DNA of 64,000 bases from Octopus vulgaris. Taxonomy: Eukaryota. Numbering within the stretch: the stretch's first letter is position 1; every line of letters starts with the position of its first letter. Both the position numbers and the translations under genes were made by a program. This document shows positions 746 through 62,934 of this stretch, piece by piece. Below the pieces are notes generated by a model that was given only the letters and a program-made list of their open reading frames with translations, was not told where the DNA came from and searched no databases. The stretch lies in NCBI GenBank assembly GCA_951406725.2, contig OX597818.1, positions 54,932,001-54,996,000 of the forward strand, given 5' to 3'.

Positions 746-944
746 CGAAAAAGGAAACTAACTACAGCAAGCTATAAAGACGGACATGTTGAGATGGGCT
801 TGATCGAGAGAATATTCCAGGAACCTGAGAATACAAGCAGCAACTCGTTTAAACCACGATCGACTTGACGTTGTTGTTTGGAACAACAAAAGACGGAAAG
901 TTCGCTTTACTTGGAATTCTCTTGATAATAACGTAAAGTATACT

Positions 945-1150
945 AGCCATCAGTATGGCTAATCACTTAGGGTGGGTGTTACTGTAGCTTTTAGCCCCAG
1001 GAGATCATCGTCTCCAGCTGGCTTTAGGCACACTATCTGTGCCCTTATGGTATTTGCGAAGGGAGGTCATCCCTTTCTCGTAAGCCTAAGTGATACGCAC
1101 GGACTGCAGTTTCGAGGTGTTTGCCTCTTGTCAACGCACGGTAATCACCG
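945..1150 (-). mobile_element. Family R hammerhead-bearing non-coding element, diverged copy
   Basis: Colinear similarity to 56330-56530. Hammerhead at 1096-1140: CGUGCG-UUGACAA-GAGG-CAAACA-CCUC-GAAAC-UGCA-GUC-CGUGCG. Confidence 0.8.
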
Positions 1151-1444
1151 GTTTACGATGAAAAGGAAGACCTGTTTGCAAATACTTATGGGTTTTTCTA
1201 GTAACTTCCGTCACTGGTTTCGAAAAACTGTCTGCAAGCCATAATAAATCTCTGAACGAGATGTTTCTGGATCATCGATGCCTGAAAGTCAAGTATTTAA
1301 AATATACATTCAGCTTTATGACCGTCATTTTGGGAGCGGTAGGATACGTACCAACCCGCCTGCTCTCAAAATATGGCCGATCCTGAAAAGATGGAGAGAT
1401 AACGTAGATCCGTAATTCTCACGCTTATAGAAATTAGAAGTGAC

Positions 1445-1762
1445 AGCATATAGCCTAGTGGTTAGAGCAACGGACTTGCGGTTGAAGGATCGCGGGTTCG
1501 AACATCAGACCGGGCGATGTGTGTGTTTATGAGCGAAATACCTATGCTCCATGCAGCTCCGGCAGAAGTTAATGGCGAACTTCTGCTGACTCTTTCGCCA
1601 CAACTTTCTCTCACTCTTTCCTCCTGCATCTAGCAGCTCACCTGCGACGGACCGGCGTCCTGTCCAGATGGGGAACCTATACACCAAGGAAACCGGGAAA
1701 CCGGCGGCCTTATGAGCTAGGCATGACTCGAGAAGGAACAAGCAACAATAACGACAACAACA
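1445..1762 (+). mobile_element. SINE family B with the alternative tail (CCTGCGACGGACCGGCGTCC..., ending in CAA repeats)
   Basis: A-box-like TAGTGGTTAGAGC and B-box GGTTCGAAC. Body shared with 4874-5254; tail shared with 47005-47310 and 61905-62190. Confidence 0.8.
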
Positions 1763-2265
1763 TACAGATTTGTAAGAACTTTTAAAATATAAAAAGTAAA
1801 GGATTGGGCAAAGAAAAACTGACGAATAAAACAGGAATCTATTTTGCTGAAAACAAAAATTGAAAAAAATGTTTTATTTATAATTCGCAGCCAAAGTGGA
1901 CGGTCAAAATATACTTTCAAACTCCTACACAAAAGAGAAAATTCATACATATTAACACACACACACACACACACACATAATATATATATTATAGAAATGT
2001 ATATATATATATATGTATATATATGTATATGATATTATATATGTATGTGAATATATGCATGTGTGCGCATGTGTCTGCTTGTGTGTATATGTATGTGTTT
2101 CTATACGAATGCACATAGATGCACGGTTCTAAACAGATTTTCGCACACTCCTACACACATATACAGGAAAGTAGGATTAACTTTGAGAATAATCAAAACA
2201 CAGAACCGACTCCCAAATCAGACGGTTTGCAAAAATCTTACTTCTCTGGTATGTGTACACACTCA

Positions 2266-2306
<41 letters not shown>

Positions 2307-2425
2307 CTACATACACAAACAATAAAACACACATACGTACGTATGGATCATTGTACATATGCATGTATGCATGTGTATATGTATGCATGTACATATATAT
2401 ATATATATATACATATATATGTATG

Positions 2426-2456
<31 letters not shown>

Positions 2457-2732
2457 ATATGTATATATATATATATATATGTATATATGCGTGTGTGTGT
2501 GTGTGTTTGTGTATATGTATATATATACGGCAATAAGAAAATGGAAGGGTTGAAGAGGTGGTATTCATCAACTTTTAGACGTTAAATTATGTCTATTTAT
2601 TTATTTATTTATTTAAAAAAAAACAATGATTACAACATACATATATGTATAACATTTTATGCTTTACATATATAAAAATACCAGTAATTATTAAAATATA
2701 TAACGTAGAACACGTTATATATTTTATTAATT

Positions 2733-3225
2733 CTCTTGGAGCTAATCACCGGCAGCATTCGTCCTCTTTTTCTGGACTGCCATGATAGCTTGACGATAAC
2801 TGTTAATACCTAGTACTGATGCTGTAGTCTCCTTTAGAGAGATTTAGAAATTATAATATTTTTAATTTTGAAAACAAGTGTATGTGTTCTACTGAATATA
2901 TTATCAGCCTTCCAACAGACAGTCAACAGCGACGCCTGTTGCGTTCGGCAATTCCAGATTCATAAGGGGCATATACCCCGAAACTAGTATGTGGATGCTT
3001 GGACCAGCATGGGGAAGCTGATGACCTACCCTGTTTGAAGGTTGTAATGGACACAGGTTTGTGTGTCACATAGCTAGCTAGATGCGATGGTCTCTTGGAG
3101 CTAATCAACGGCAGCATTCGTCATCTTTTTCTGGACTACCATGTTAGCTTGGCGATAACTATTAATGCCCAGTACTACTGCCATAGTCTTCTTTAGAGAG
3201 ATTTCGAAATAATAATATTTCTATT
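2733..3225 (+). mobile_element. Family R element, about 1.4 tandem units (direct repeats 2733-2860 and 3091-3220, period ~358 nt), with a hammerhead-like motif at 2954-2994
   Basis: TCTCTTGGAGCTAATCA...TTTAGAGAGATTT occurs twice. Between the copies lies CCAGA-UUCAUAA-GGGG-CAUAUA-CCCC-GAAAC-UA-GUA-UGUGG, followed by hairpins homologous to 56840-56930. Confidence 0.7.
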
Positions 3226-3482
3226 TATATTTGTTCCTAGTTTCAATAAGATCTCATGATGCATATAATATTAATTATTAAAAAGGTCTAAATTCGAGAC
3301 AAAGACTACGCGTAATTAGATAATGCCATTACTAGATGATATAACAAAATCTGCCCGGAAATATTGACTCCAAATTTATATAATTACGCTTAATTAAAAT
3401 CACTCAGAATTAATGAAAACAGAAAACTTGGATACGAGAAGTCTCAACACCGGGAGCGGGTTTATAGTAATTATGTAAGATT

Positions 3483-5372: not shown

Positions 5373-6010
5373 AAGGCGGAGAGTTGACAGAATCGTTAGG
5401 ACGCCGAGAAAAATACTTAGCGGCATTTCGTCTGTCTTTACGTTTTGAGTTCAAATACCTATTTCTTTACTACCCACAAGGGTCTACACACAGAGGGGAC
5501 AAACAAGGACAGGCATACGGATTAAGTCGACTATATCGACCCCAGTATGTAACTGGTCCTTAATTTATCGACCCCGAAAGGATGAAAGGCAAAGTCGACC
5601 TCGGCGGAATTTGAACTCAGAACGTAGAGATAGACGAAATACCTATTTCTTTATTACTCACAAGGGGCTAAACATAGAGGGGACAAACAAGGACAGGCAT
5701 ACGGATTAAGTCGATTATATCGACCCTAGTACGTAACCGGTTCTTATTTAATCGACCCCGAAAGGATGAAAGGCAAAGTCGACCTCGGCGGAATTTGAAC
5801 TCAGAACGTAGAGATAGACGAAATACCGCTAAGCATTTCGCCCGGCGGTATTTCGCCTGTCTCTACGTTCTGAGTTCAAATACCGCCGAGATCGACTTTG
5901 ACTTTCATCCTGTTGGGGTCGATAAATTAAGTACCAACTGAGCACTGGGATCGATGTAATCGACTCACGCCCTCCCCGAAACTGCTGGGGCTATGTCAAA
6001 ATTTGAAACA
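5373..6010. mobile_element. SINE family C composite: a minus-strand tandem dimer (5460-5846) inserted in a plus-strand copy
   Basis: The plus-strand head breaks at TTCAAATACC (5459) and resumes at ~5847 with ~38 bp duplicated. Two 184-bp reverse units lie between. Confidence 0.85.
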
Positions 6011-13316: not shown

Positions 13317-14396
13317 GAAGATTAGATACTGACGACTAAAATTCCTGTGATTACAGGGGTGTGCGCAACCAGTGCAACCACACCGTTGCATATTTAAACC
13401 CCGCCCCCCGAGAGAAATATTTAATAGTTGGCATATATTTTTCCAACTCTTTTTCTATTAAATTTTTTCGAAGACGGCGATGGTATCGAGGGACTTGGAT
13501 TAAGTCCTCAACACCACCGTTTTCTTTTCAACTTCTTCCAGACATCAACAGCAGTAGCAACAACAACTTGCGTGTTTGCCATCTTCATTAAGTCTGTCAA
13601 ATTAACAACCTCCAAGGAACCTCTTATTTTGGTCTACAATCAAACCAAGAGTAGCTACAAACGTAAGATTTCTCATCACGTCTCCTGTTAGAAATTTTCA
13701 ACGAATTTTGCTAACATCATTTTTTTATTCTCTCAAAGGTTTTTTTTTTCTCTCTCTCTCTCTCTCTTTCTACTTTCTGAGGAACACTCTAAGATTCCTC
13801 AAATCTTTGTTTGAGTTATATGCAAAGTAATAGAAATATTTTATATAAACACGAAACAATAAAAAGCCTAAGAATAGTCGAGAATGGTTATAAAACATTT
13901 TAGTGTTAATCAAGATATAGAGTCAAATATGGCTCTCTGCCGGACTGTGCTACTAATTCTATATATAACCAGAGTAACGAACTTGATATTTCACTCACTT
14001 ATGGTTTCAGTCAATTGGTATGATAAACGATATTACTAATATAACAAGCATAACAAATACGAACACCTTGGGAGCTTTATTTTCTCATTTATCAACAACT
14101 TTTGATTGAGAACTCTCCAACACTGTAGAAATTTAATCTAAATTCCATAAATACAATGTAATACGATTCTGAAAGTCGCATAAGAAATTCCCATAAATAA
14201 TCTCGGTTCATTTGTAATGAAATAGTAATTAGCATTCTACACAGAAGCTGTCAGTTTTTATCTCTCAAACTGTCAATATTTACACCTCCTAAACTAAACA
14301 GCTAAAAAAACTGATGAGGCAATGAAAGCATGTCTACTGTTACATAACATTTCCATCTCGGTGTTGAAAATCGTAAAAGAGAGAGAAGCTCTGGCC

Positions 14397-15148
14397 ATTC
14401 ATGATTCGACTTCTCGGATTCACGATTTGATTTCTTGGATTCACGATTCGACTTCTTGGATTCACGATTCGATTTCTTGGATTCATGATTCGACTTCTTG
14501 GATTCACGATTCGACTTCTTGGATTCACGATTCGACTTCTTGGATTCACGATTCGACTTCTTGGATTCACGATTTGATTTCTTGGATTCGCGATTCGACT
14601 TCTTGGATTCACGATTCGATTTCTTGGATTCACGATTCGACTTCTTGGATTCACGATTCGATTTCTTGGATTCACGATTCGACTTCTTGGATTCAAGATT
14701 CGACTTCTTGGATTCACGATTCGACTTCTTGGATTCACGATTCGACTTCTTGGATTCACGATTCGACTTCTTGGATTCACGATTCGACTTCTTGGATTCA
14801 CGATTCGACTTCTCGGATTCACGATTTAATTTCTTGGATTCACGATTCGACTTCTTGGATTCGCGATTCGACTTCTTGGATTCACGATTCGACTTCTTGG
14901 ATTCACGATTCGACTTCTTGGATTCACGATTCGATTTCTTGGATTCACGATTCGATTTCTTGGATTCACGATTCGACTTCTCGGATTCACGATTCGACTT
15001 CTTGGATTCACGATTCGACTTCTTGGATTCATGATTCGATTTCTTGGATTCACGATTCGACTTCTCGGATTCACGATTCGACTTCTTGGATTCCCGATTC
15101 GACTTCTTGGATTCATGATTCGATTTCTTGGATTCACGATTCAACTTC
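14397..15148. repeat. 21-bp tandem array (ATTCACGATTCGACTTCTTGG), about 36 copies
   Basis: Read directly: substitution variants but no indels. Produces the (RESKKSN)n, (IHDSTSW)n, (SRFDFLD)n and (VNPRSRI)n ORFs. Confidence 0.97.
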
Positions 15149-15302
15149 GCGTTCCAATTCAGTGATACAAATTATGCCCTTCCGATTGTCGACAACAATG
15201 AGGACAATCCCTCTATGACAGTCCATCAACTATAAATTTGAGACTTCTTGATTATAGAGATGTATTTACTTCAAGGTCACTTCTGAAATATTCTTTTATT
15301 CC

Positions 15303-21376: not shown

Positions 21377-21703
21377 ATTTATACCCCATGGGTACCATTT
21401 CTGTCTACCAGACGCTATTCACAAGGAATTTAGCCGTTGCTACAATATTCTCATTATCAAAGGAAATTGTCTAAAGCATCGCACATTGTAACAAAAGTAA
21501 AACAAAAATCAATTCAAGAACAATTTATTATATTTATAGAAGGGAGACAGTCGAGGATCGCTGGAAGGTTGGTTGGGGACCACATGAGGCCCTGGGGCCG
21601 CGATTGAGAACCGCAGCTGTAGATACTACTTATTCTTCCGGAGCTAGAGTGTAAAGAATGAAAACCCAACAAAACAAAACGTTACCATTATTCATCAGTT
21701 CTC

Positions 21704-22100
21704 AAGGCGGCGAGCTGGCAGAGTCGCTAGCACGCCGGACGAAATGCCTAGCCGTATTTCGTCTGCTGCTACGTTCTGAGTTCAAATTCCGCTGAGGTCG
21801 ACTTTGCCTTTCATCCTTTCGGGGTCGATTAAATAAGTACCAGTTACGCACTGGGGTCGATATAATCGACTTAATCCGTTTGTCTGTCCTTGTTTGTCCG
21901 CTGTATGTTTAGCCCCCTGTGGGTAATAAAGAAATAGGTATTTCGTCTGTCTTTACGTTCTGAGTTCAAATTCCGTCGAGTTTGACTTATCATTTCATCC
22001 CTACGCGATCGATAAATTAAATACCAGTTGCGCACTGAGGTCGATCTAATCGACTGGCCTCCTCCCTCAAAATTTCGGGCTTTTTACCTAGAATAGAAAA
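21704..22100 (+). mobile_element. SINE family C tandem dimer with TSD
   Basis: Head GGCGAGCTGGCAGA and B-box GAGTTCAAATTCC. Unit junction AAAGAAATA|GGTATTTCG at ~21936. Flanks ATTATTCATCAGTTCTC / ATTATTTATGAGTTCTC. Confidence 0.88.
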
Positions 22101-22451
22101 TATTATTTATGAGTTCTCGTATCGTTTATCACACAAAATTCCGCTGACGCATTACTTCCGGTTTCTGCATCACGTAGAGATTCAAGGAAGAATACTTTTT
22201 ATCTTTAACTTGTTTCCATCATTACACTGTAGCCATGTTGGGGCACGGCCTTGGGACAGATTTTAGTGGAATGAATCGACTCTAGCACTTTTTTAAAAGC
22301 AGGGTACTTATTCTATCGGTCTCTTTCACCGAAATGCTAGGTTACTGGGACGTGAACAAACCAACACCGGTTGTAAAGCTGTGGTTGGAGACAAACACTG
22401 ACACAAACATACGCACTCTCACACATACATTATATATATTTACATACATAC

Positions 22452-25777: not shown

Positions 25778-25993
25778 TAGTGTGGAGCGACTGACCTCCC
25801 TTGTTCGAAGGTTATATGGATACAGTTTGTGTATCAAATAGCTAACTTAAGGCGATGGCCTCATGGAGCTAATAAGCGGACAGCTTTATTCTTATTTTTT
25901 ATAAGAATGCCATATTAGTATGGCGATAACTATTATTTTCCGGGAACGCTGCCGCTGTTCTCTTTTAGAGAGACTTAGTAATTTTAATATTTC

Positions 25994-26000
<7 letters not shown>
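25778..26000 (+). mobile_element. Family R 3' fragment (hairpin domain, no ribozyme) ending in (TA)n
   Basis: Colinear with 3010-3225: TGACCTCCCTTGTTCGAAGG, GATACA-GTTTG-TGTATC, GGAGCTAA, TTTAGAGAGA. Confidence 0.7.
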
Positions 26001-26035
<35 letters not shown>

Positions 26036-33129: not shown

Positions 33130-33728
33130 TTATTCTTTATTGCCACAAGGGGCTAAACATAGAGGGAACAAACAAGGACCGACAAAGGAATTGAGTCGAT
33201 TACATCGACCCCAGTGCGTAAATAGTACTTATTTAATCGACTCCGAAAGGATGAAAGGCAAAGTCGACCTCGGCGGAATTCGAACCCAGAACGTAAAGAA
33301 GACGAAATATATATTTCTTTACTACCCACAAGGGGCTAAACACAGAGAGGACAAACAAGGACAGACAAACGGATTAAGTCGATTATATCGACCCCAGTGC
33401 GTAACTGGTACATAATTTATCGACCCCGAAAGGATGAAAGGCAAAGTCGACCTCGGCGGAATTTGAACTCAGAACGTAGCGGCAGATGAAATACCTATTT
33501 TTTTACTACCCACAAGGAGCTAAACACAGAACGGACGAATAAGGACAGACAAACGGATTAAGTCGATTACAATGACCCCAGTGCGTAACTGGTACTTATT
33601 TAATCGACCCCGGAAGGATGAAAGGCAAAGTCGACCTCGGCGGAATTTGAACTCAGAACGTAGCGGCAGACGAAATACCGCTAAGCATTTCGCCCGGCGT
33701 GATAACGATTCTGCCAGCTCGCTGCCTT
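33130..33728 (-). mobile_element. SINE C tandem trimer
   Basis: Three ~184-bp units; only the rightmost carries the 5' head. Confidence 0.9.
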
Positions 33729-33792
33729 CTGACAAGTTAAATTATATTATAGAAAAGGTAATGCTATCACAGAGACTCAAGGATTCGTCGTG

Positions 33793-37680: not shown

Positions 37681-38172
37681 AATGGACCTCAGCCCATTTG
37701 TATTATCATTTATACTACACCAAACTTGGAACTTTCCCTGTGTTGGATCTTGAACCTACAGTGGACCGTGGACTGCATGCCGGAGTACAGTACACTTGTG
37801 TGATTTTACGTATACATTGGGTGTATTTATTCTATATTTGTCGATGTTTGCGAAACTAGAAGTATAATCAGTATTTGCTATAATAGTTACATAAATACAC
37901 AGATATGCAATTCCCGACTCTACCTTGGTGCCTGTGTTATTAAAATTTTTTGAGTCTGTTGGATCTTGAACCCAGTACCATATGGTTGAGAAACAAACTT
38001 CTAACCACACAGCCACGCCTGCACCTATTGATGTTATAATGATTCATTCAGCAAGCACGTGAAGCTAACTTTGAATTTGTTTCGGTGCTATTAGACCTCA
38101 TTAGCGTAATATATACCTCATCATACTTACCGAAGTGGAGATGACAGAATCTACAATAAGTGTACAATACTA

Positions 38173-38930
38173 GTTTCAAATTTTGGCACAAGGCCAGCAA
38201 TTTCGGTGGGGTGGGTAAGTCGATGTCATCAATCCAAGTGCTCAGCTGCTACTTATTTTATCAACCCAGAAAGGACGAAAGACAAAGTTGACCTCGGCGG
38301 AATTTGAACTCAGAACGTAACGGCAGACGAAATACCTATTTCTTTACTACCCACAAGGGGCTACACACAGAGAGGACAAACAAGGACAGACAAATGGATT
38401 AAGTCGATTATATCGACCCCAGTGCGTAACTGGTACTTAATTTATCGACCCCGAAAGGATGAAAGGCAAAGTCGACCGACGGAATTTGAACTCAAAACGT
38501 AACGGCAGACGAAATACCTATTTCTTTACTACCCACAAGGAGCTAAACACAGAGAGGGCAAACAAGGACAGACAAACGGATTAAGTCGATTACATCGACC
38601 CCAGTGCGTAACTGGTACTTATTTAATCGACCCCGAAAGGATGAAAGGCAAAGTCGACCTTGGCGGAATTTGAACTCAGAACGTAACGGCAGATGAAATA
38701 CCTATTTCTTTACTACTCACAAGGGCTAAACACAGAGAGGACAAACAAGGACAGACAAACGGATTAAGTCGATTACATCGACCCCAGTGCGTAACTGGCA
38801 CTTATTTAATCGACCCCGAAACGATGAAAGGCAAAGTCGACTTCGGAGGAATTTGAACTCAGAACGTAGCGGCAGACGAAATACTGATAAGTATTTTGCT
38901 CGGCGTGCTAACGGTTCTGCCAGCTCGCCG
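38173..38930 (-). mobile_element. SINE C tandem tetramer
   Basis: Junctions GAAATACC|TATTTCTTTACTAC at about 38337, 38519 and 38703. The terminal unit has a different tail. Confidence 0.92.
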
Positions 38931-39313
38931 CTTTACAAGTTACAATGTTGGGCAATAATACGCTCCGGTATGATGCAGCCATTGGTGACTGGGTATAAAG
39001 CGCCGATCTCTCGTAAGGGCCTAACTCCTAAGTTAAACAAAGATGCATATTTGCGTTACTGTCAGACAAACCAGATAAGCAGGTGAATGCTTCATTTCGC
39101 CCTAAGTACAGTCACACTCTCATTTTCCAAAGTCGCAATGATTCTGTAATAAAAAGGGTTTATTTTGTCTTTCCTTTCCTTGCATTATCTTATCTTATCT
39201 TTTCTTCTTTACATCATCTTTTGAAGCAGCTGAGAAGATGCAGAAAATGTTTTGTTGACACCATGGCAACTGGTATCTTAGGCTATATAAATCGAAAGCA
39301 AGAGAGAAAGATA

Positions 39314-41032: not shown

Positions 41033-42389
41033 AAGGCGGCGAACTGGCGGAATCGTTAGCACGCCGGGCGAAATGCATAGTCGTATTTCGTCTGCCGCTA
41101 CGTTCAGAGTTCAAATTCCGCCAAGGTCGACTTTGCCTTTCATCGTTTCGGAGGTCGATAAATTAAGTACCATTTGCGCACTGGGTCGATGTAGTCGTCT
41201 AGCCCCTCTCCCACAAAAACATTTCAATGACTTATGCCTAGAATAGAAATAATTATTATAAAAATCAGAAAGGCGGCGAGTTAGTGGAGCCGTTAGCACG
41301 CCGGGCGAAATGCTTAACGGTATTTCGTCTGTCGCTACGTTCTGAGTTCAAATTCCGCCGAGGTCGACTTTGCCTTTCATCCATTCGGAGTCAATTAAAT
41401 AAGTACCAGCTATGCACTGGGGTCGATGTATTCGACTTAACCCCCTCCCTCAAGCTACTCATCTGGCAAAAATTTGAAATCATTATTAAAATAAGGAAAT
41501 TCCATCATATTGGTTTCAAATTTTAGCACAAAGCCAGCAATTTTGGTGAAGGGAGTAAGTCGATTACATCGTCCCCAGTGCTCATCTGGTACTTATTTTA
41601 TCGACTTCCGAAAGGATGAAAGGCAAAGACGTCCTTGGTTAAATTCGAACTCAGAACTTAAGGACGACGAAATGATGCTAAGCTTTTCATCCGAGGTGCT
41701 AACGATTCTGCCAGCTCGCCGACTTCATAATAATAATAATAATAACAATAATAATAATAATAATAATAATCCTTTCTACTGGAGGCACAAAGACTCAAAT
41801 TTGTGGGGAGATGACTAGTTGATCACATCGACACCAGTGTTTCAGTAGTACTTGATTTATCGACCCTGAAAAGAGGAATGGAAAAATCGACCACGGCGGA
41901 ACTTGAACTCAGAACGCAAGGATGGACGAACTGCCGCTGAACAATTTTCCCAGCGTACTAACAATTCTGCCAGCTCGCCACCGTTATAATAATCCTTTCT
42001 ACTATAGACACAAGGCCTGAAATTGAGGGAGAGGGGACTAGGCGATAACATTGACCCTAGTGTTTCACTGGTACTTAATTTATGGACCTCGAAAGAATGA
42101 AAGGCAAAGTCAACCTAGGCAGAATTTGAACTCTCAACGTAGTGACGGGCGAAATACCTATTTCTTTACTACCCACAAGGGGCTAAACACAGAGGACAAA
42201 CAAGGACAGACAAACGGATTAAGTCGATTATATCGACCCCAGTACGTAACTGGTACTTAATTTATCGACCCCGAAAGGATGAAAGGCAAAGTCGATCTCT
42301 GCGAAATTTGAACTCAGAACGTAACGGCAGACGAAATACGGCTACGCATTTCGCCCGGCGTGCCAACGTTTCTACCAGCTCGCCGCCTT
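41033..42389. mobile_element. Cluster of SINE C copies (two +, three -, the last a dimer)
   Basis: Repeated GGCGAGCTGGCAGAA heads and GTCGACTTTGCCTTTCATCC bodies. Confidence 0.85.
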
Positions 42390-42600
42390 AAAGTATTGAA
42401 TTAATAATGCTGTAAAGAAGTGTGGCTCATTATTTAGGTAAAGTCGTGTGTTCAGTTCCAGTCCGGGAAATGCATTGTGTTTGAGCAAACCAATTCGTTT
42501 CACGTTGCTCCGGTTTACTCAGCCGTAAATGAGTATCAATCGAGTACCAATACAACTCTGCCTGTTTGACTGTGTCTGTCTCTTCTCTCTCCTTCTCTCC

Positions 42601-44544: not shown

Positions 44545-44941
44545 TTTTCTACTCTAAGCAAAAGGCCTGAAATTTGTGGGGAGAGGACCAGTCGATTAGA
44601 TTGATCCCAGTATGCAACCGGTACTTAATTCATCGACCCCGAAGCGATGAAAGGCAAAGTCCGACTTCGGTGGAATTTGAACTCAGAACATGCAGACAGA
44701 CGAAATACCTATTTCTTTACTGCCCACAAGGGGTTACACACATAGGGGACAAACAAGGACAGACAAACAGATTAAGTTGATTATATCGACCCCAGTGCGT
44801 AACTGGTACTTATTTAATCGATTCCGAAAGGATGAAAGGCAAAGTCGACTTCGGTGGAATTTGAACTCAGAACGTAACGGCAGACTAAATACTGCTGAGC
44901 ATTTCGCCCGGCGTGCTAACGATTCTGCCAGCTCGCCGCCT
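44545..44941 (-). mobile_element. SINE C tandem dimer
   Basis: Same junction GAAATACC|TATTTC at about 44710. Confidence 0.88.
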
Positions 44942-45068
44942 TAAAGTGGTCCCATGAATATAAAAGTCCAGTTAATGTATAAATCTGGTAAAGTTAGCCA
45001 AATAACTATGATGAGATACCTGCTATGCGTCACTACAGGGTGGGTGGAAAGTAACTAGACATTAGAAA

Positions 45069-45578
45069 TCTATATTTATAAAACTGTAGTTGTGTGAGTG
45101 TCTGTCTCCTACGATTTAGATTCCTAACTCCTCCCACATTTTGCGGTGCAGTTTAACCAAATTCGGGTATCTTATAGTTGTGATTCATATCGAGCCCGTC
45201 TGAGTATTAGCGCGCGTCTACGATGAGTCTACGATTTTAAAAATAATTTAACATCATTTTTTATTCCATTTTCATGCTCAATTTTTCGTGTGTCGATGGT
45301 GGCGGAGTTGGCGTCCACGCTCACAGCTGCACCTGTTTACTTCTCCCCTTTCCCTCCCTCGTGAAGCTGTGGGGAAGGGAGTGTAAAGAAATCAACGTCG
45401 TAATGCGTTGTCAAGGAGACCAGCGTTCTTTTAGAACAACGACTTCATGGCTTGAAGACACCAAAACAGAAATGGCTAAGAAAGCCCGAATTGGCATCTA
45501 TAAAGGAAGTAACTCTCTAAAAATGCTTATATAGTTATTTCCCTTACAAACCCGAGCAACGCCGGGCGATACTGCTAG
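45069..45578 (+). mobile_element. Non-autonomous Helitron
   Basis: 5' TC, 3' hairpin CCCGAGCAACGCCGGG followed by CTAG, inserted between A and T with no TSD. Second copy at 52733-53129. Confidence 0.9.
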
Positions 45579-45694
45579 TTGCTTATAAAATTTTTAGTAT
45601 CACTGAAGTCATGACGAAAGCATTTTTTAAACAGACAACACTAATGGGGATTTAAAAAAAAAATTTTCTTATTGTCTTATTTCTTATTTTCCAG

Positions 45695-46573
45695 GTGGCC
45701 GGTCGCTTGCCTGTTCAGGAGCGAGCTAAGATAGCAGTGTACTATGAAGTGTGGGATTCCATTGTTTTGGATCCGAGATGGTGGCCTGCATGGACAGGTA
45801 AGCATACAACACTAAATCCAGAGACAATAAAAAGTTGTCATGCAAAGCTGTTGTCCACGGGTTCTGAGAACGATGCAAGAAGAAATGGCTGCCCAACCAC
45901 ATCCCGATCAGCGGAGAACGTGGCAACAGCACAGGAAATGTTTAATCGCAGCCCGCAAAAATCAACACGATAAGCATCTCGTGAAAGTGGACTAACAAGA
46001 CACACAATATGTATGGTGTTGCATAAAGAATTGAATTTTCGTCCGTGGAAACCCCATTATGTGCAGGAGCCAAAACCTGAAGACTGTGACCGCAGAAGGG
46101 AATATGGAGAGTTAATTGTATGAAGATTGGCCTGAATTATTTGTAAATATTCTCTGGAGTGACGAGCCTGGGATATTCTAATACCTATTTCTTTATTACC
46201 CACAAGGGGCTAAACATAGAGGGGACAAACAAGGACAGACATAGGTATTAAGTCGATTACATCGACCCCAGTACGTAACTGGTACTTAATTTATCGACCC
46301 CGAAAGGATGAAAGGCAAAGTCGACCTCGGTGGAATTTGAACTCAAAGCGTAGCGGCTGACGAAATACCACTAAGCATTTCACCCGTCGTGCTAACGTTT
46401 CTACCAGCTCACCGCTGGTTCTAATACCGATCGCACACTGGAGGACTTGGAGACACGGATTCAGAAGATTCTCAATCATATATCACAGACGACGTCCTTC
46501 ATAAGGTTGTTCATTCCATCCCCGGCCGTTTGAGGAAACTCGTTGACGCGACCGCTGCTTACGTTGAAATATG
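45695..46573 (+). pseudogene. Tc1/mariner-superfamily transposase relic (HTH N-terminus, catalytic core mostly deleted)
   Basis: KLLSTGSENDARRNGCPTTSRSAENV...SPQKSTR*ASRESGL...LHKELNFRPWKPHYVQ...ILWSDE, then RTLEDLETRI...HSIPGRLRKLVDATAAYVEI*. Confidence 0.8.
46186..46418 (-). mobile_element. SINE C monomer with a 10-bp TSD
   Basis: TTCTAATACC at 46176-46185 and 46419-46428. Confidence 0.9.
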
Positions 46574-55975: not shown

Positions 55976-56053
<78 letters not shown>

Positions 56054-56197
56054 CAGCATATTGGCAAATAAAATCTTTACTTTTTGCCCTTATTTATAAT
56101 TGTATTTAAAATTTCACCCTAAAAGGTATTTTTCATATGCTGACCATTGATAAATGTTTTAATAAAATTTAATCTTTATATTAGAATTATATGTGCG

Positions 56198-56273
<76 letters not shown>

Positions 56274-56481
56274 GATAAATATCAAAGTGAGTTATATACA
56301 GTAGCGGTAACACATCGTGACGTATTTTTGCCATTTCAATATGGCTAACCCCTAAGGGTGGATGCTACTGTAGTTTTTAGCCCCAGGAGGACACACTCCT
56401 CCAGCTGGCCATAGACACACTTTCTGTGTCCTGTCAGTATTTGCAAAGGGAAGTCATCCTTCCCGTCTTCAACTTATGATA

Positions 56482-56526
56482 CACACGGACTCGAGTTTCG
56501 AGGTATTGACCTCTCTTCAGCGTGTG
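56482..56526 (-). ncRNA. Intact type I hammerhead ribozyme (family R)
   Basis: CACACG-CUGAAGA-GAGGU-CAAU-ACCUC-GAAAC-UCGA-GUC-CGUGUG. Stem I extends (UAUGAU/AUCAUA) beyond an internal loop. Confidence 0.9.
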
Positions 56527-56556
56527 ACAATCATAGTTGTCGGCGAGAACATAGTT

Positions 56557-56984
56557 GTCCTCCTGGGGCTAAAAACTACAGTAGCATCCACCCTTAGGGG
56601 TTAGCCATATTGAAATGGCAAAAATACGTCACGATGTGTTACCGCTACTGTATATAACTCACTTTGATATTTATCATTGTTTGATTTCACTTTTTCAATA
56701 TCAGCGACAGTGGACGCTGGAAAAAGTATAAGTATTTGTGAAGGAAATCTAATTCTCGGCGACAACTATGATTGTCACACGCTGACGAGAGGTCAATACC
56801 TCGAAACTCGAGTCCGTGTGTATGATAAGTTGAAGACGGGAAGGATGACTTCCCTTTGCAAATACTGACAGGACACAGAAAGTGTGTCTATGGCCAGCTG
56901 GAGGAGTGTGTCCTCCTGGGGCTAAAAACTACAGTAGCATCCACCCTTAGGGGTTAGCCATATTGAAATGGCAAAAATACGTCA

Positions 56985-56988
<4 letters not shown>
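56557..56988 (+). mobile_element. Family R element, about 1.2 tandem units, period 353 nt
   Basis: GTCCTCCTGGGGCTAAAAACTACAG...GTCACGAT occurs at 56557 and again at 56910. Confidence 0.85.
56776..56820 (+). ncRNA. Intact type I hammerhead ribozyme (family R)
   Basis: CACACG-CUGACGA-GAGGU-CAAU-ACCUC-GAAAC-UCGA-GUC-CGUGUG; predicted cut between 56814 and 56815. Confidence 0.9.
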
Positions 56989-57046
<58 letters not shown>

Positions 57047-57057
<11 letters not shown>

Positions 57058-57673
57058 CGCACATATAATTCTAATATAAAGATTAAATTTTATTCAAACA
57101 TTTATCAATGGTCAGCATATGAAAAATACCTTTTGGGGTGAAATTTTAAATACAATTATAAATAAGGGCAAAAAGTAAAGATTTTCTTTGCCAATATGCT
57201 GAACAATAGACGTTAAATCGTCTAACCACATAAAATATTTTCACTTGTATTATTACACCACGTGACGAAACGAGTAAAGCGGCTAACAGAGATTCATAAA
57301 AATATAGTTATTCCTGAATCGGTTCCGATTTCTGGATTAATCCAAAAAGGATTTTTCCTGCGTCAGCGGGGGACACAAAAAGAAAATAAATAAATGAAAT
57401 CCTTAAACATACCCACGGAAAAGCACATTTAAGTACCCTAAATATATCTAAATCGAAATTCCGTAGCAAACTTCGGCACAAGTGTAGTCGGTCGGGAAAC
57501 GCACACAAGTGGTTAACCCGTCCAGAAGTGATTGAGAATTTACTTCTAATATAAGGATAAAATTTTATTAAAATAATAATATAAGTGAAAATAGTTTATG
57601 TAGTGAGACGATTTGGCGTGTATTTTTCAGCATATTGGCAAAGAATCTTTTTCTTTTTGCCTTTATTTATAAT
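57047..57673 (-). mobile_element. Family G element: partial direct repeat (57069 / 57545, period ~476) plus an inverted terminal segment, PLE-like layout
   Basis: TTCTAATATAA.GAT.AAATTTTATT occurs twice; 57574-57673 is an imperfect reverse complement of 57156-57254. Confidence 0.6.
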
Positions 57674-58777: not shown

Positions 58778-59284
58778 AGAGAGAGAGAGAGAGAGTGTGT
58801 GTGTGTGTCTTCGTGCATGTGTTTTTCTCGTAACCCAGCGGTTCGGCAAAAGGGCCGATATTGTAAGTACTTGGCTTAAGGAGATTTAGCACTGGAAATG
58901 ATTTGTCTGGCTAAATCACCCAAGGATGAATCCCAGAATGGGCGCAGTTCAATGACAGAAACAAGTAAAAAGTAGGTGAAAAGCATATTTTAATGCCTCA
59001 AAATCTTTATTTTCACCAGAAGTTTCTAAGATTATTTATTCTTTTCTACTCTAGGCACAAAGCCCGGAAATTTAGGGAGAGGCTCAGTCAATTAGATCAA
59101 CTGGTACTTAATTTATCAACTCGGAAAAGATAAAAGGCAAAGTCGATCTTGGCGGAATTTGAACTCAGAACGTAGCGGCAGACAAAATACTGCCAGGCAT
59201 TTCGCCCAGCGTGCTAACGTTTCTGCCAGCTCGCCAGGGACACGGAGTGAAAATAGTAAAAGAAAATCATTTTCTTTAAATTTC

Positions 59285-62208: not shown

Positions 62209-62934
62209 CAGTATTCTAGGGTGTTATGTTCCAAAAACACCCGGGATAGGTGAAAATCTGCAAAGTAGAAACAGTACTGAACCGTATTTATTATTATTCT
62301 TATGAATTGTATATATTTATTATATTATAAATGCAAAACACCACCACGCACTCGCCTCCCGACTTTTGTTTTCCATACAGTATGTGCGATCCTTTGCTTA
62401 CTCATCCACGGTACACTACGTATTTCCTTTTAATATATTTTAATTAATGGGTTATACAGTGCAGTACTGTACTGTATTTTTATTTATTAATTTGTTAATT
62501 CTTGGGTGTGAAAATGCTTATTTTACCACAGGAATAATCAAAATTTAAAAAAAAAACGCCAACGGTTGCAGAAGGCCGCGATATACTGAGGAGTCCACGA
62601 TATAAATTTACATATATTTATTTCTTTATTGCCCGCAGGAGGCTAAACATAGAGAGGACAAACAAGGACAAGTAAAGGGATTAAGTCGATTACATCGACC
62701 CCAGTGCGTAACTGGTACTTATTGAATCGACCCCGAAAGGATGAAAAGCAAAGTCGACCTCGGCGGAATTTGAACTCAGAACGTAAAGACAGGCAAAATA
62801 CCGATATGTATTTCGCCCAGCGTGCTAACGATTCTGCCAGCTCGCCGTCCTCTAAATTTATATACATTAACCAGAAACATCCGCGATGTACTGAGGGCGC
62901 GATAGGTGAACCACGATATGCCGAGTGATTACTG
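62209..62934. mobile_element. Probable pogo/Tigger-like MITE containing a SINE C (62620-62848, -)
   Basis: Ends TA-CAGTA ... CGAGTGATTACTG, with a repeated subterminal GATAGGTGAA. Confidence 0.5.

Follow-up and report, generated by a model that had tools for sequence, protein, structure and literature searches.

An abundant subfamily of a non-coding, retrozyme-like repeat mostly carries a U3-A8 hammerhead core

Results

Repeat copies in the window

The window, that is, the complete stretch of 64,000 nucleotides analyzed here, comes from an animal, has a cephalopod-like appearance and contains many microsatellites and SINE-like repeats. Its 37 open reading frames of at least 150 aa include none that is convincing and no Penelope reverse transcriptase plus GIY-YIG frame, and no frame of at least 150 aa runs across the element copies described below. 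These are copies of a repeat with monomers of 353, 359 and 371 nt and a GC content of 42-44% (Table 1). Copy B is 76% identical to the element at 56 kb over 213 nt (blastn, E 3e-36), and copy C matches copy B at E 1.9e-6 (nhmmer). The duplicated 136 nt of copy C differ at 17 sites, so that each unit has diverged by ~6.8% after insertion, provided that both were identical at that time. Copy D is 75% identical to copy C over 214 nt (blastn). Only partial tandems are found in the window, of 1.2 units in A+ and 1.4 units in C, with B amounting to about one unit, and at no locus in the window do two hammerheads stand in direct tandem. The predicted folds of the monomers, in which the hammerhead sits atop a long stem, beat those of all 100 shuffles (z -6.1 for A+, -5.0 for B and -2.8 for C).

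Table 1. Positions of the repeat copies, their hammerhead elements and other features of the window.
Feature	Position	Strand	Description
Copy B	928..1298	(-)	About one monomer, 371 nt, GC 44%; aligned locally with the monomer at 56 kb
Type I hammerhead of copy B	1090..1148	(-)	Coordinate map, monomer and dimer folds
Copy B, outer stem I	1148-1144/1094-1090	(-)	
Copy B, loop I	1143-1141	(-)	TAC, opposite T1095
Copy B, stem I	1140-1135/1101-1096	(-)	
Copy B, core	1134-1128	(-)	TTGACAA; U3 = 1134, A8 = 1129
Copy B, stem II	1127-1124/1117-1114	(-)	
Copy B, GAA	1113-1111	(-)	
Copy B, stem/loop III	1110-1103	(-)	Palindromic
Copy B, predicted cut	after C1102	(-)	
Copy C	2732..3226	(+)	Distantly related; 1.4 units, monomer 359 nt, GC 42%; period scan
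Degenerate hammerhead of copy C	2953..2995	(+)	Stem II GGGG/CCCC, stem/loop III ACTAGT, A2989 at the cut position
Copy C, core	2959-2965	(+)	TTCATAA; U3, G5C at 2961, A8 at 2964
Family of ~184-nt units	5453-5936, 21687-22107, 33159-33788, 38146-38994, 41782-42394, 44667-46478, 59038-59245, 62612-62911	both	Dispersed, short tandem runs
Minisatellite	14250-15220		21-nt units, ~45 units, 93-95% alike; several reading frames open
Copy D	25782..26003	(+)	3' part of a C-like element, without hammerhead; ends at a TA microsatellite
Near-perfect palindrome	56047-57208		~1.15 kb
Copy A-	56272..56549	(-)	Inverted, 5'-truncated arm of the A+ insertion; ~40 nt extra tail; ends at a TA microsatellite
Hammerhead of A-	56482-56526	(-)	
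A-, core	56520-56514	(-)	CTGAAGA, C3-G8
Copy A+	56556..56988	(+)	1.2 units of a 353-nt monomer, GC 42.5%; duplicated 80 nt identical
Hammerhead of A+	56776-56820	(+)	
A+, core	56782-56788	(+)	CTGACGA, C3-G8
Flank-like piece	begins near 57627		

At 56 kb, A+ and A- form an inverted repeat of 99% identity, with 3 differences in 236 nt. The two motifs found there are the arms of one inverted insertion and therefore represent one data point; that is, the window contains three independent motifs, not four. This locus combines a partial tandem with an inverted, truncated arm, carries a ~40-nt tail and has its ends at TA microsatellites. A TA-run end is also seen in copy D, and copies B and C are without one. 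Besides the retrozyme arms, ~220 nt of flank are likewise duplicated in inverted orientation, at 99%, so that a near-perfect palindrome results; because the arms differ by the 40-nt tail, this palindrome is either a recent inverted duplication or a fold-back of the assembly.

Immediately upstream of copy B but on the other strand, ~1430-1750 is occupied by what we take to be a tRNA-like, SINE-type repeat. A motif scan found no hammerhead in the dispersed family of ~184-nt units.

Architecture of the hammerhead motifs

The core letters, and the coordinates 1096-1140(-) and 2954-2994(+), that a preliminary description had given for these motifs are all present in the sequence. A+, A- and B each show the three-stem, type I arrangement, with an open-ended stem I, an A15.1-U16.1 pair and a nucleotide other than G at position 17. 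Their cores are either of the form CUGANGA/GAAA or, in B, carry a compensated 3-8 pair; the core of copy C departs from this form by its G5C change. As potential partners of a loop I-loop II tertiary contact, stem I contains a 3x1 internal loop and loop II has six bases; the majority loop II of the copy B subfamily, CAAAUA, is the Rfam consensus loop. In line with the preliminary description, Perreault et al. 2011 (PMC3088659) state that C3 and G8 pair and that U3-A8 cores occur naturally and are active.

Covariation of the stems, also proposed there, is borne out in part. Stem II is GAGG/CCTC in the 56-kb copies and in copy B, and GGGG/CCCC in copy C, so that it covaries in copy C, at one pair, and is unchanged in copy B. 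For outer stem I, A- has TATGAT/ATCATA and copy B has GTGAT/ATCAC, a compensated difference; A+ has a mismatch in this stem. Stem III consists of a 2-bp stem with a palindromic loop, and the stem/loop III sequences (ACTCGAGT, ACTGCAGT and ACTAGT) are palindromic, as had been noted. In two-strand folds, the predicted form of B and A- is a double hammerhead in which stem III has 8 bp and whose energy is ~10 kcal/mol lower than that of two monomers; in the dimer folds of A+ and C, the hammerhead is not the lowest-energy form.

The expectation that strict searches overlook such variants is confirmed by Rfam. A+ and A- match RF00163 (Hammerhead_1) at E 4.6e-6 (32.2 bits) and E 8.8e-6 (31.4 bits), respectively, both below the gathering score of 34, and at the gathering threshold there is no hit anywhere in the window. 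These E values, together with the similarity of B to the 56-kb element and of C to B, speak against a chance resemblance of the motifs to hammerheads. A scan of 900-3300 (2.4 kb) at E up to 10 returned 45 matches, nearly all of them located on microsatellites and none to a hammerhead; that is, both B and C were missed.

Alleles at positions 3 and 8 in the copy B subfamily

Contigs from 4 public runs (of 24 listed; three organism labels) were aligned at 80% likeness to 1030-1230, a stretch that spans no unit junction. The alignments comprised 559 contigs from X1 (organism A), 498 from X5 (organism B), 325 from X8 (organism D) and 117 from X12 (organism A), a run only guessed to be RNA; the contigs show no ends or strand, and alleles were listed at 5% of depth or more. 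At position 8 (1129), A accounts for 80-94% of depth in all four runs and G for 6.3, 9.8, 6.6 and 20.2% in X1, X5, X8 and X12, respectively, with the other letters below 5%. At position 3 (1134), no allele other than U reaches 5% in any of the four runs, and C3 is therefore below 5%; the allele table for 1134 is complete, as the per-run counts of A>G places are fully explained by other sites. No other core position of the copy B motif shows a change at 5% in these runs, and the CpG sites 1114/1113, 1136/1135 and 1101/1100 show no decay at that level either.

Given A8 at 80-94%, C3 below 5% and undecayed CpG sites, U3-A8 is the subfamily state for B. It prevails in an abundant subfamily, seen under three organism labels, and does not reflect decay of one copy. 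Summed depth over the depth of the listed contigs puts the number of A8 copies at roughly 150-700 per run, a figure to be read as "abundant" only, since depth is no copy number. Had U3 and A8 arisen copy by copy from a C3-G8 consensus, with G8A produced by CpG decay, this majority would not be expected in four of four runs, with U3 above 95% of listed depth, nor would the three other CpG sites have stayed undecayed at 5%; moreover, C3 does not lie in a CpG. Decay of this kind has on its side that C7-G8 is a CpG in A+ and that copy C, with three core changes (P 0.06 for three or more at its divergence), is visibly decayed. We regard it as highly improbable overall, and for copy B we reject it unless the contig alignment is badly biased. 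Nor, for copy B, do the four runs refute the earlier reading by the condition that the preliminary description had set against it, a subfamily consensus of C3-G8 with U3 and A8 occurring independently.

Alignment onto copy B favors B-like sequence, and its effect can be bounded. If all contigs lost between 1120 and 1129 are counted as G8, this allele amounts to 13.5, 9.8, 12.0 and 23.4% in X1, X5, X8 and X12. In X5, depth is flat over 1120-1142, and thus the value of C3 below 5% is not excused by clipping there. In X1, X8 and X12, 21-23% of depth is lost between 1129 and 1137, and so C3 could reach ~27% in these runs. The depth of the B-type core is 22-34% of that over stem III, the remainder being clipped at 1113-1118.

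The G8 alleles beside U3, at 6-20%, imply that U3·G8 wobble copies exist, as judged from each of the two columns separately and not from linkage within single contigs. Positions 3 and 8 are therefore not strictly linked: the earlier statement that they change together holds for copies B and C and fails as a rule of strict linkage. This minority may be a stepping stone between the two paired states, or A8 may have turned to G later within one sub-lineage, through ordinary mutation or through A-to-I editing of the paired RNA ahead of reverse transcription. The latter is a serious possibility, though we hold it to be somewhat the weaker one: T>C changes of the plus strand, which are A>G changes of the hammerhead strand, form the largest of the listed classes, with 6 places per run, and G8 peaks (20%) in X12, the run guessed to be RNA; yet the reverse-strand A>G class has 2-4 places, so that the excess is small, and G8 also stands at 6-10% in the DNA runs, the kind of X12 being itself a guess. 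The predominance of A-to-G on the hammerhead strand among the listed changes is common to all four runs, and this small excess is possibly a trace of RNA editing before reinsertion.

At stem I position 1137, three alleles are found (9-76%), of which the commonest converts a G·U pair to A-U; hence, several sub-lineages share U3-A8. The subfamily is young, with 239 of the 559 X1 contigs at least 95% alike to copy B. Since N7 is as invariant in it as the catalytic bases, the invariance of the core within B is weak evidence of selection.

Sister subfamilies

Among the loose ends listed at 1113-1118, those that are well agreed carry C3-G8, the loop UCAAUA and other stem II pairs. Stem II is CGGG/CCCA in X1 (5 contigs, agreement 0.93) and X8 (6 contigs, 0.88), and its 5' side is UAGG in X12 (2 contigs, 0.98). 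At 1118, those of X1 and X5 mix several sequences (agreement 0.64 and 0.57) and are left out of this reading. The closest relatives of B thus keep C3-G8, and by parsimony U3-A8 is likely to be derived in B.

One of these sisters is an abundant subfamily with C10.1·A11.1 at the base of stem II, where the pair is usually conserved, together with an intact C3-G8 core; A at 11.1 (position 1114) makes up 45-61% of depth. In X12, a loose end at 1100 contains another perfect palindrome, ACCGCGGU.

Copy C

The hammerhead of copy C matches a degenerate hammerhead pattern with 1 mismatch. In addition to the G5C change, stem I is interrupted by a G·G mismatch (2957/2991), and the cleavage position is an A. 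This hammerhead is probably inactive, in agreement with the earlier view of the 3-kb copy as probably dead, with its extra G5C change, which is indeed present. The probability that C3U and G8A both arose by chance since insertion is ~0.002-0.006, compared with 0.59 for one or more core hits and 0.06 for three or more. The divergence of copy C itself (~7% per unit) thus makes a chance double change unlikely. The simplest reading of its sequence, in this one copy, is that U3-A8 was in the source and that G5C came by later decay.

The GGGG/CCCC stem II, the ACUAGU of stem/loop III and A17 are no signs of decay, since an unrelated metagenome locus, L003, has all of these as copy C does, along with an intact CUGAUGA core.

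Proposed origin of the U3-A8 subfamily and comparison with known elements

The explanation that we favor, and consider probable, is that these are hammerhead-shaped cores in a non-coding repeat of 350-370 nt, likely a Penelope-dependent retrozyme, and that the U3-A8 majority state was likely inherited from self-cutting sources. The repeat looks like a non-LTR retrozyme or a solo Penelope pLTR. Multimeric transcripts would pair two units via the palindromic stem III; the paired units would be cut after C17 and circularize, and a Penelope reverse transcriptase and endonuclease would return copies of them to the genome. If only sources with a paired 3-8 contact pass that step well, a lineage that had lost C3 may have become fixed as U3-A8, probably via a U3·G8 wobble that survives as the 6-20% minority. 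Copy C would likely derive from a second, distant U3-A8 source and have decayed since, as its G5C and stem I mismatch suggest.

Selection for catalysis in B is likely because A and B, over the 13 conserved core positions, differ at just the two that pair with each other, and in a compensating way. A hand estimate of such a coincidence, ~1 in 78 position pairs multiplied by the chance of the right letters, comes to less than 0.01. In addition, the stems covary around the core, and the sister loose ends keep an intact core. These observations argue against a neutral swap, in which a source had acquired U3 and A8 by chance and then spread, without cutting itself, through Penelope proteins or as a component of a Penelope terminal repeat. 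Such hitchhiking is improbable in our assessment, even though a single founding event is no proof of selection: in a subfamily as young as this one, any fixed letter is accounted for by its founder, and the uncompensated U3·G8 class has also spread. Furthermore, Naiad Penelope elements are reported to multiply without canonical hammerheads (PMC8557442), and minimal Penelope hammerheads to cut poorly in vitro (PMC4209133).

As regards a self-cutting, Penelope-dependent origin, the closest counterparts are the metazoan non-LTR retrozymes of Cervera and de la Pena 2020, which include a mussel family of ~350-390 bp (PMC7229834). As described there, they share with the present repeat a canonical type I hammerhead, a monomer in the range of the 353-371 nt found here, GC below 45%, the lack of an ORF, a strongly self-paired monomer and insertions of more than one unit. 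The general description of these elements, non-coding, ~170-400 nt, GC below 45% and highly self-paired, applies to the repeat. Unlike them, each locus in the window has a single hammerhead and extends over 1.0-1.4 units, short of a full dimer. The main text of that paper mentions no U3-A8 subfamily, octopus or cephalopod. A 2026 preprint derives non-LTR retrozymes from Penelope terminal repeats and reports that 8 of 9 Xenopus retrozyme dimers failed to cleave in vitro (10.64898/2026.07.22.740005). The 56-kb locus shares an inverted truncated copy, a partial tandem, a tail and TA targets with Penelope insertions as described in PMC8557442.

The U3-A8 swap itself is already published, for animal Penelope elements, since 2014: according to Cervera and De la Pena 2014 (PMC4209133), the pLTRs of Cercyon in Schistosoma mansoni contain ~1,300 minimal hammerheads with U3-A8, which only a changed descriptor brought to light. 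In both cases, U3-A8 replaces C3-G8 in a high-copy animal retroelement, and a palindromic stem III provides for dimers. The Cercyon hammerheads are minimal, with a stem II of 7-8 bp, whereas those studied here are canonical, with a 6-bp stem I bearing an internal loop, a 4-bp stem II and the loop CAAAUA. Unlike in Cercyon, no ORF for a reverse transcriptase and endonuclease is attached in the window, and the accessible text of PMC4209133 mentions no U3·G8 minority. Natural U3-A8 cores are published for phages. "Several" natural examples, active in vitro, are given by Perreault et al. 2011 (PMC3088659); these variants have the compensated 3-8 pair in common with ours, and that text, as accessible, holds no census of subfamilies inside one repeat family. 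In the pDo500 satellite of Dolichopoda crickets (PMC2837043), C3 and G8 are conserved, being changed in 4 and 2 of 198 sequences, respectively; a conserved core with compensatory stem changes, also seen here, was read there as constraint, but pDo500, unlike the copy B family, is a tandem satellite that keeps C3-G8. The accessible parts of PMC3884650 and PMC6257768 add no cleavage rates for 3-8 exchanges. A literature search, reaching beyond neither main texts nor, for the most part, freely readable papers, found no description of this repeat family or of a canonical U3-A8 retrozyme subfamily.

As population-scale data confirm, most copies of an abundant subfamily of an animal retroelement can have a U3-A8 hammerhead, here in a canonical motif, and strict CUGANGA descriptors and Rfam undercount such families. 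The series of core variants offers a natural test system for whether self-cleavage is needed for the spread of retrozymes; the gain lies in this test system and in an annotation fix, not in a new principle or kind of element. A more far-reaching proposal, which we regard as speculative and rather unlikely, is that a compensatory path has been kept as amplified subfamilies, from C3-G8 to U3·G8 and then to U3-A8, reached at least twice (B and C), with C10.1·A11.1 and U10.1-A11.1 variants. If this were true, copy numbers would report on how fit the different hammerhead core variants are in vivo.

Pair counts and pattern searches

A pair count over the four rows of motifs gave 5 of 17 pairs changed on both sides, a score reached by 1 of 500 shuffles. 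This count is weak: two of the rows are near-identical, copy C is two bases out of register after stem III, and a slide of -2 scores nearly as well. The number of matches to the degenerate hammerhead pattern in the window, 4 against 0.03, was discarded as evidence, the comparison being circular, as the pattern was drawn from the same copies. Elsewhere, this pattern matched a single locus among viral contigs and 16 loci among metagenome contigs; these 17 were rejected as family members, since 0 of 17 match the family beyond the motif itself. Three of the metagenome loci, L003:420-480(-), L004:165-230(+) and L010:430-500(-), are well-formed type I hammerheads with a CUGAUGA core and a palindromic stem III, unrelated to the family outside the motif, and L003 also has a 109-nt direct repeat with a spacing of 633.
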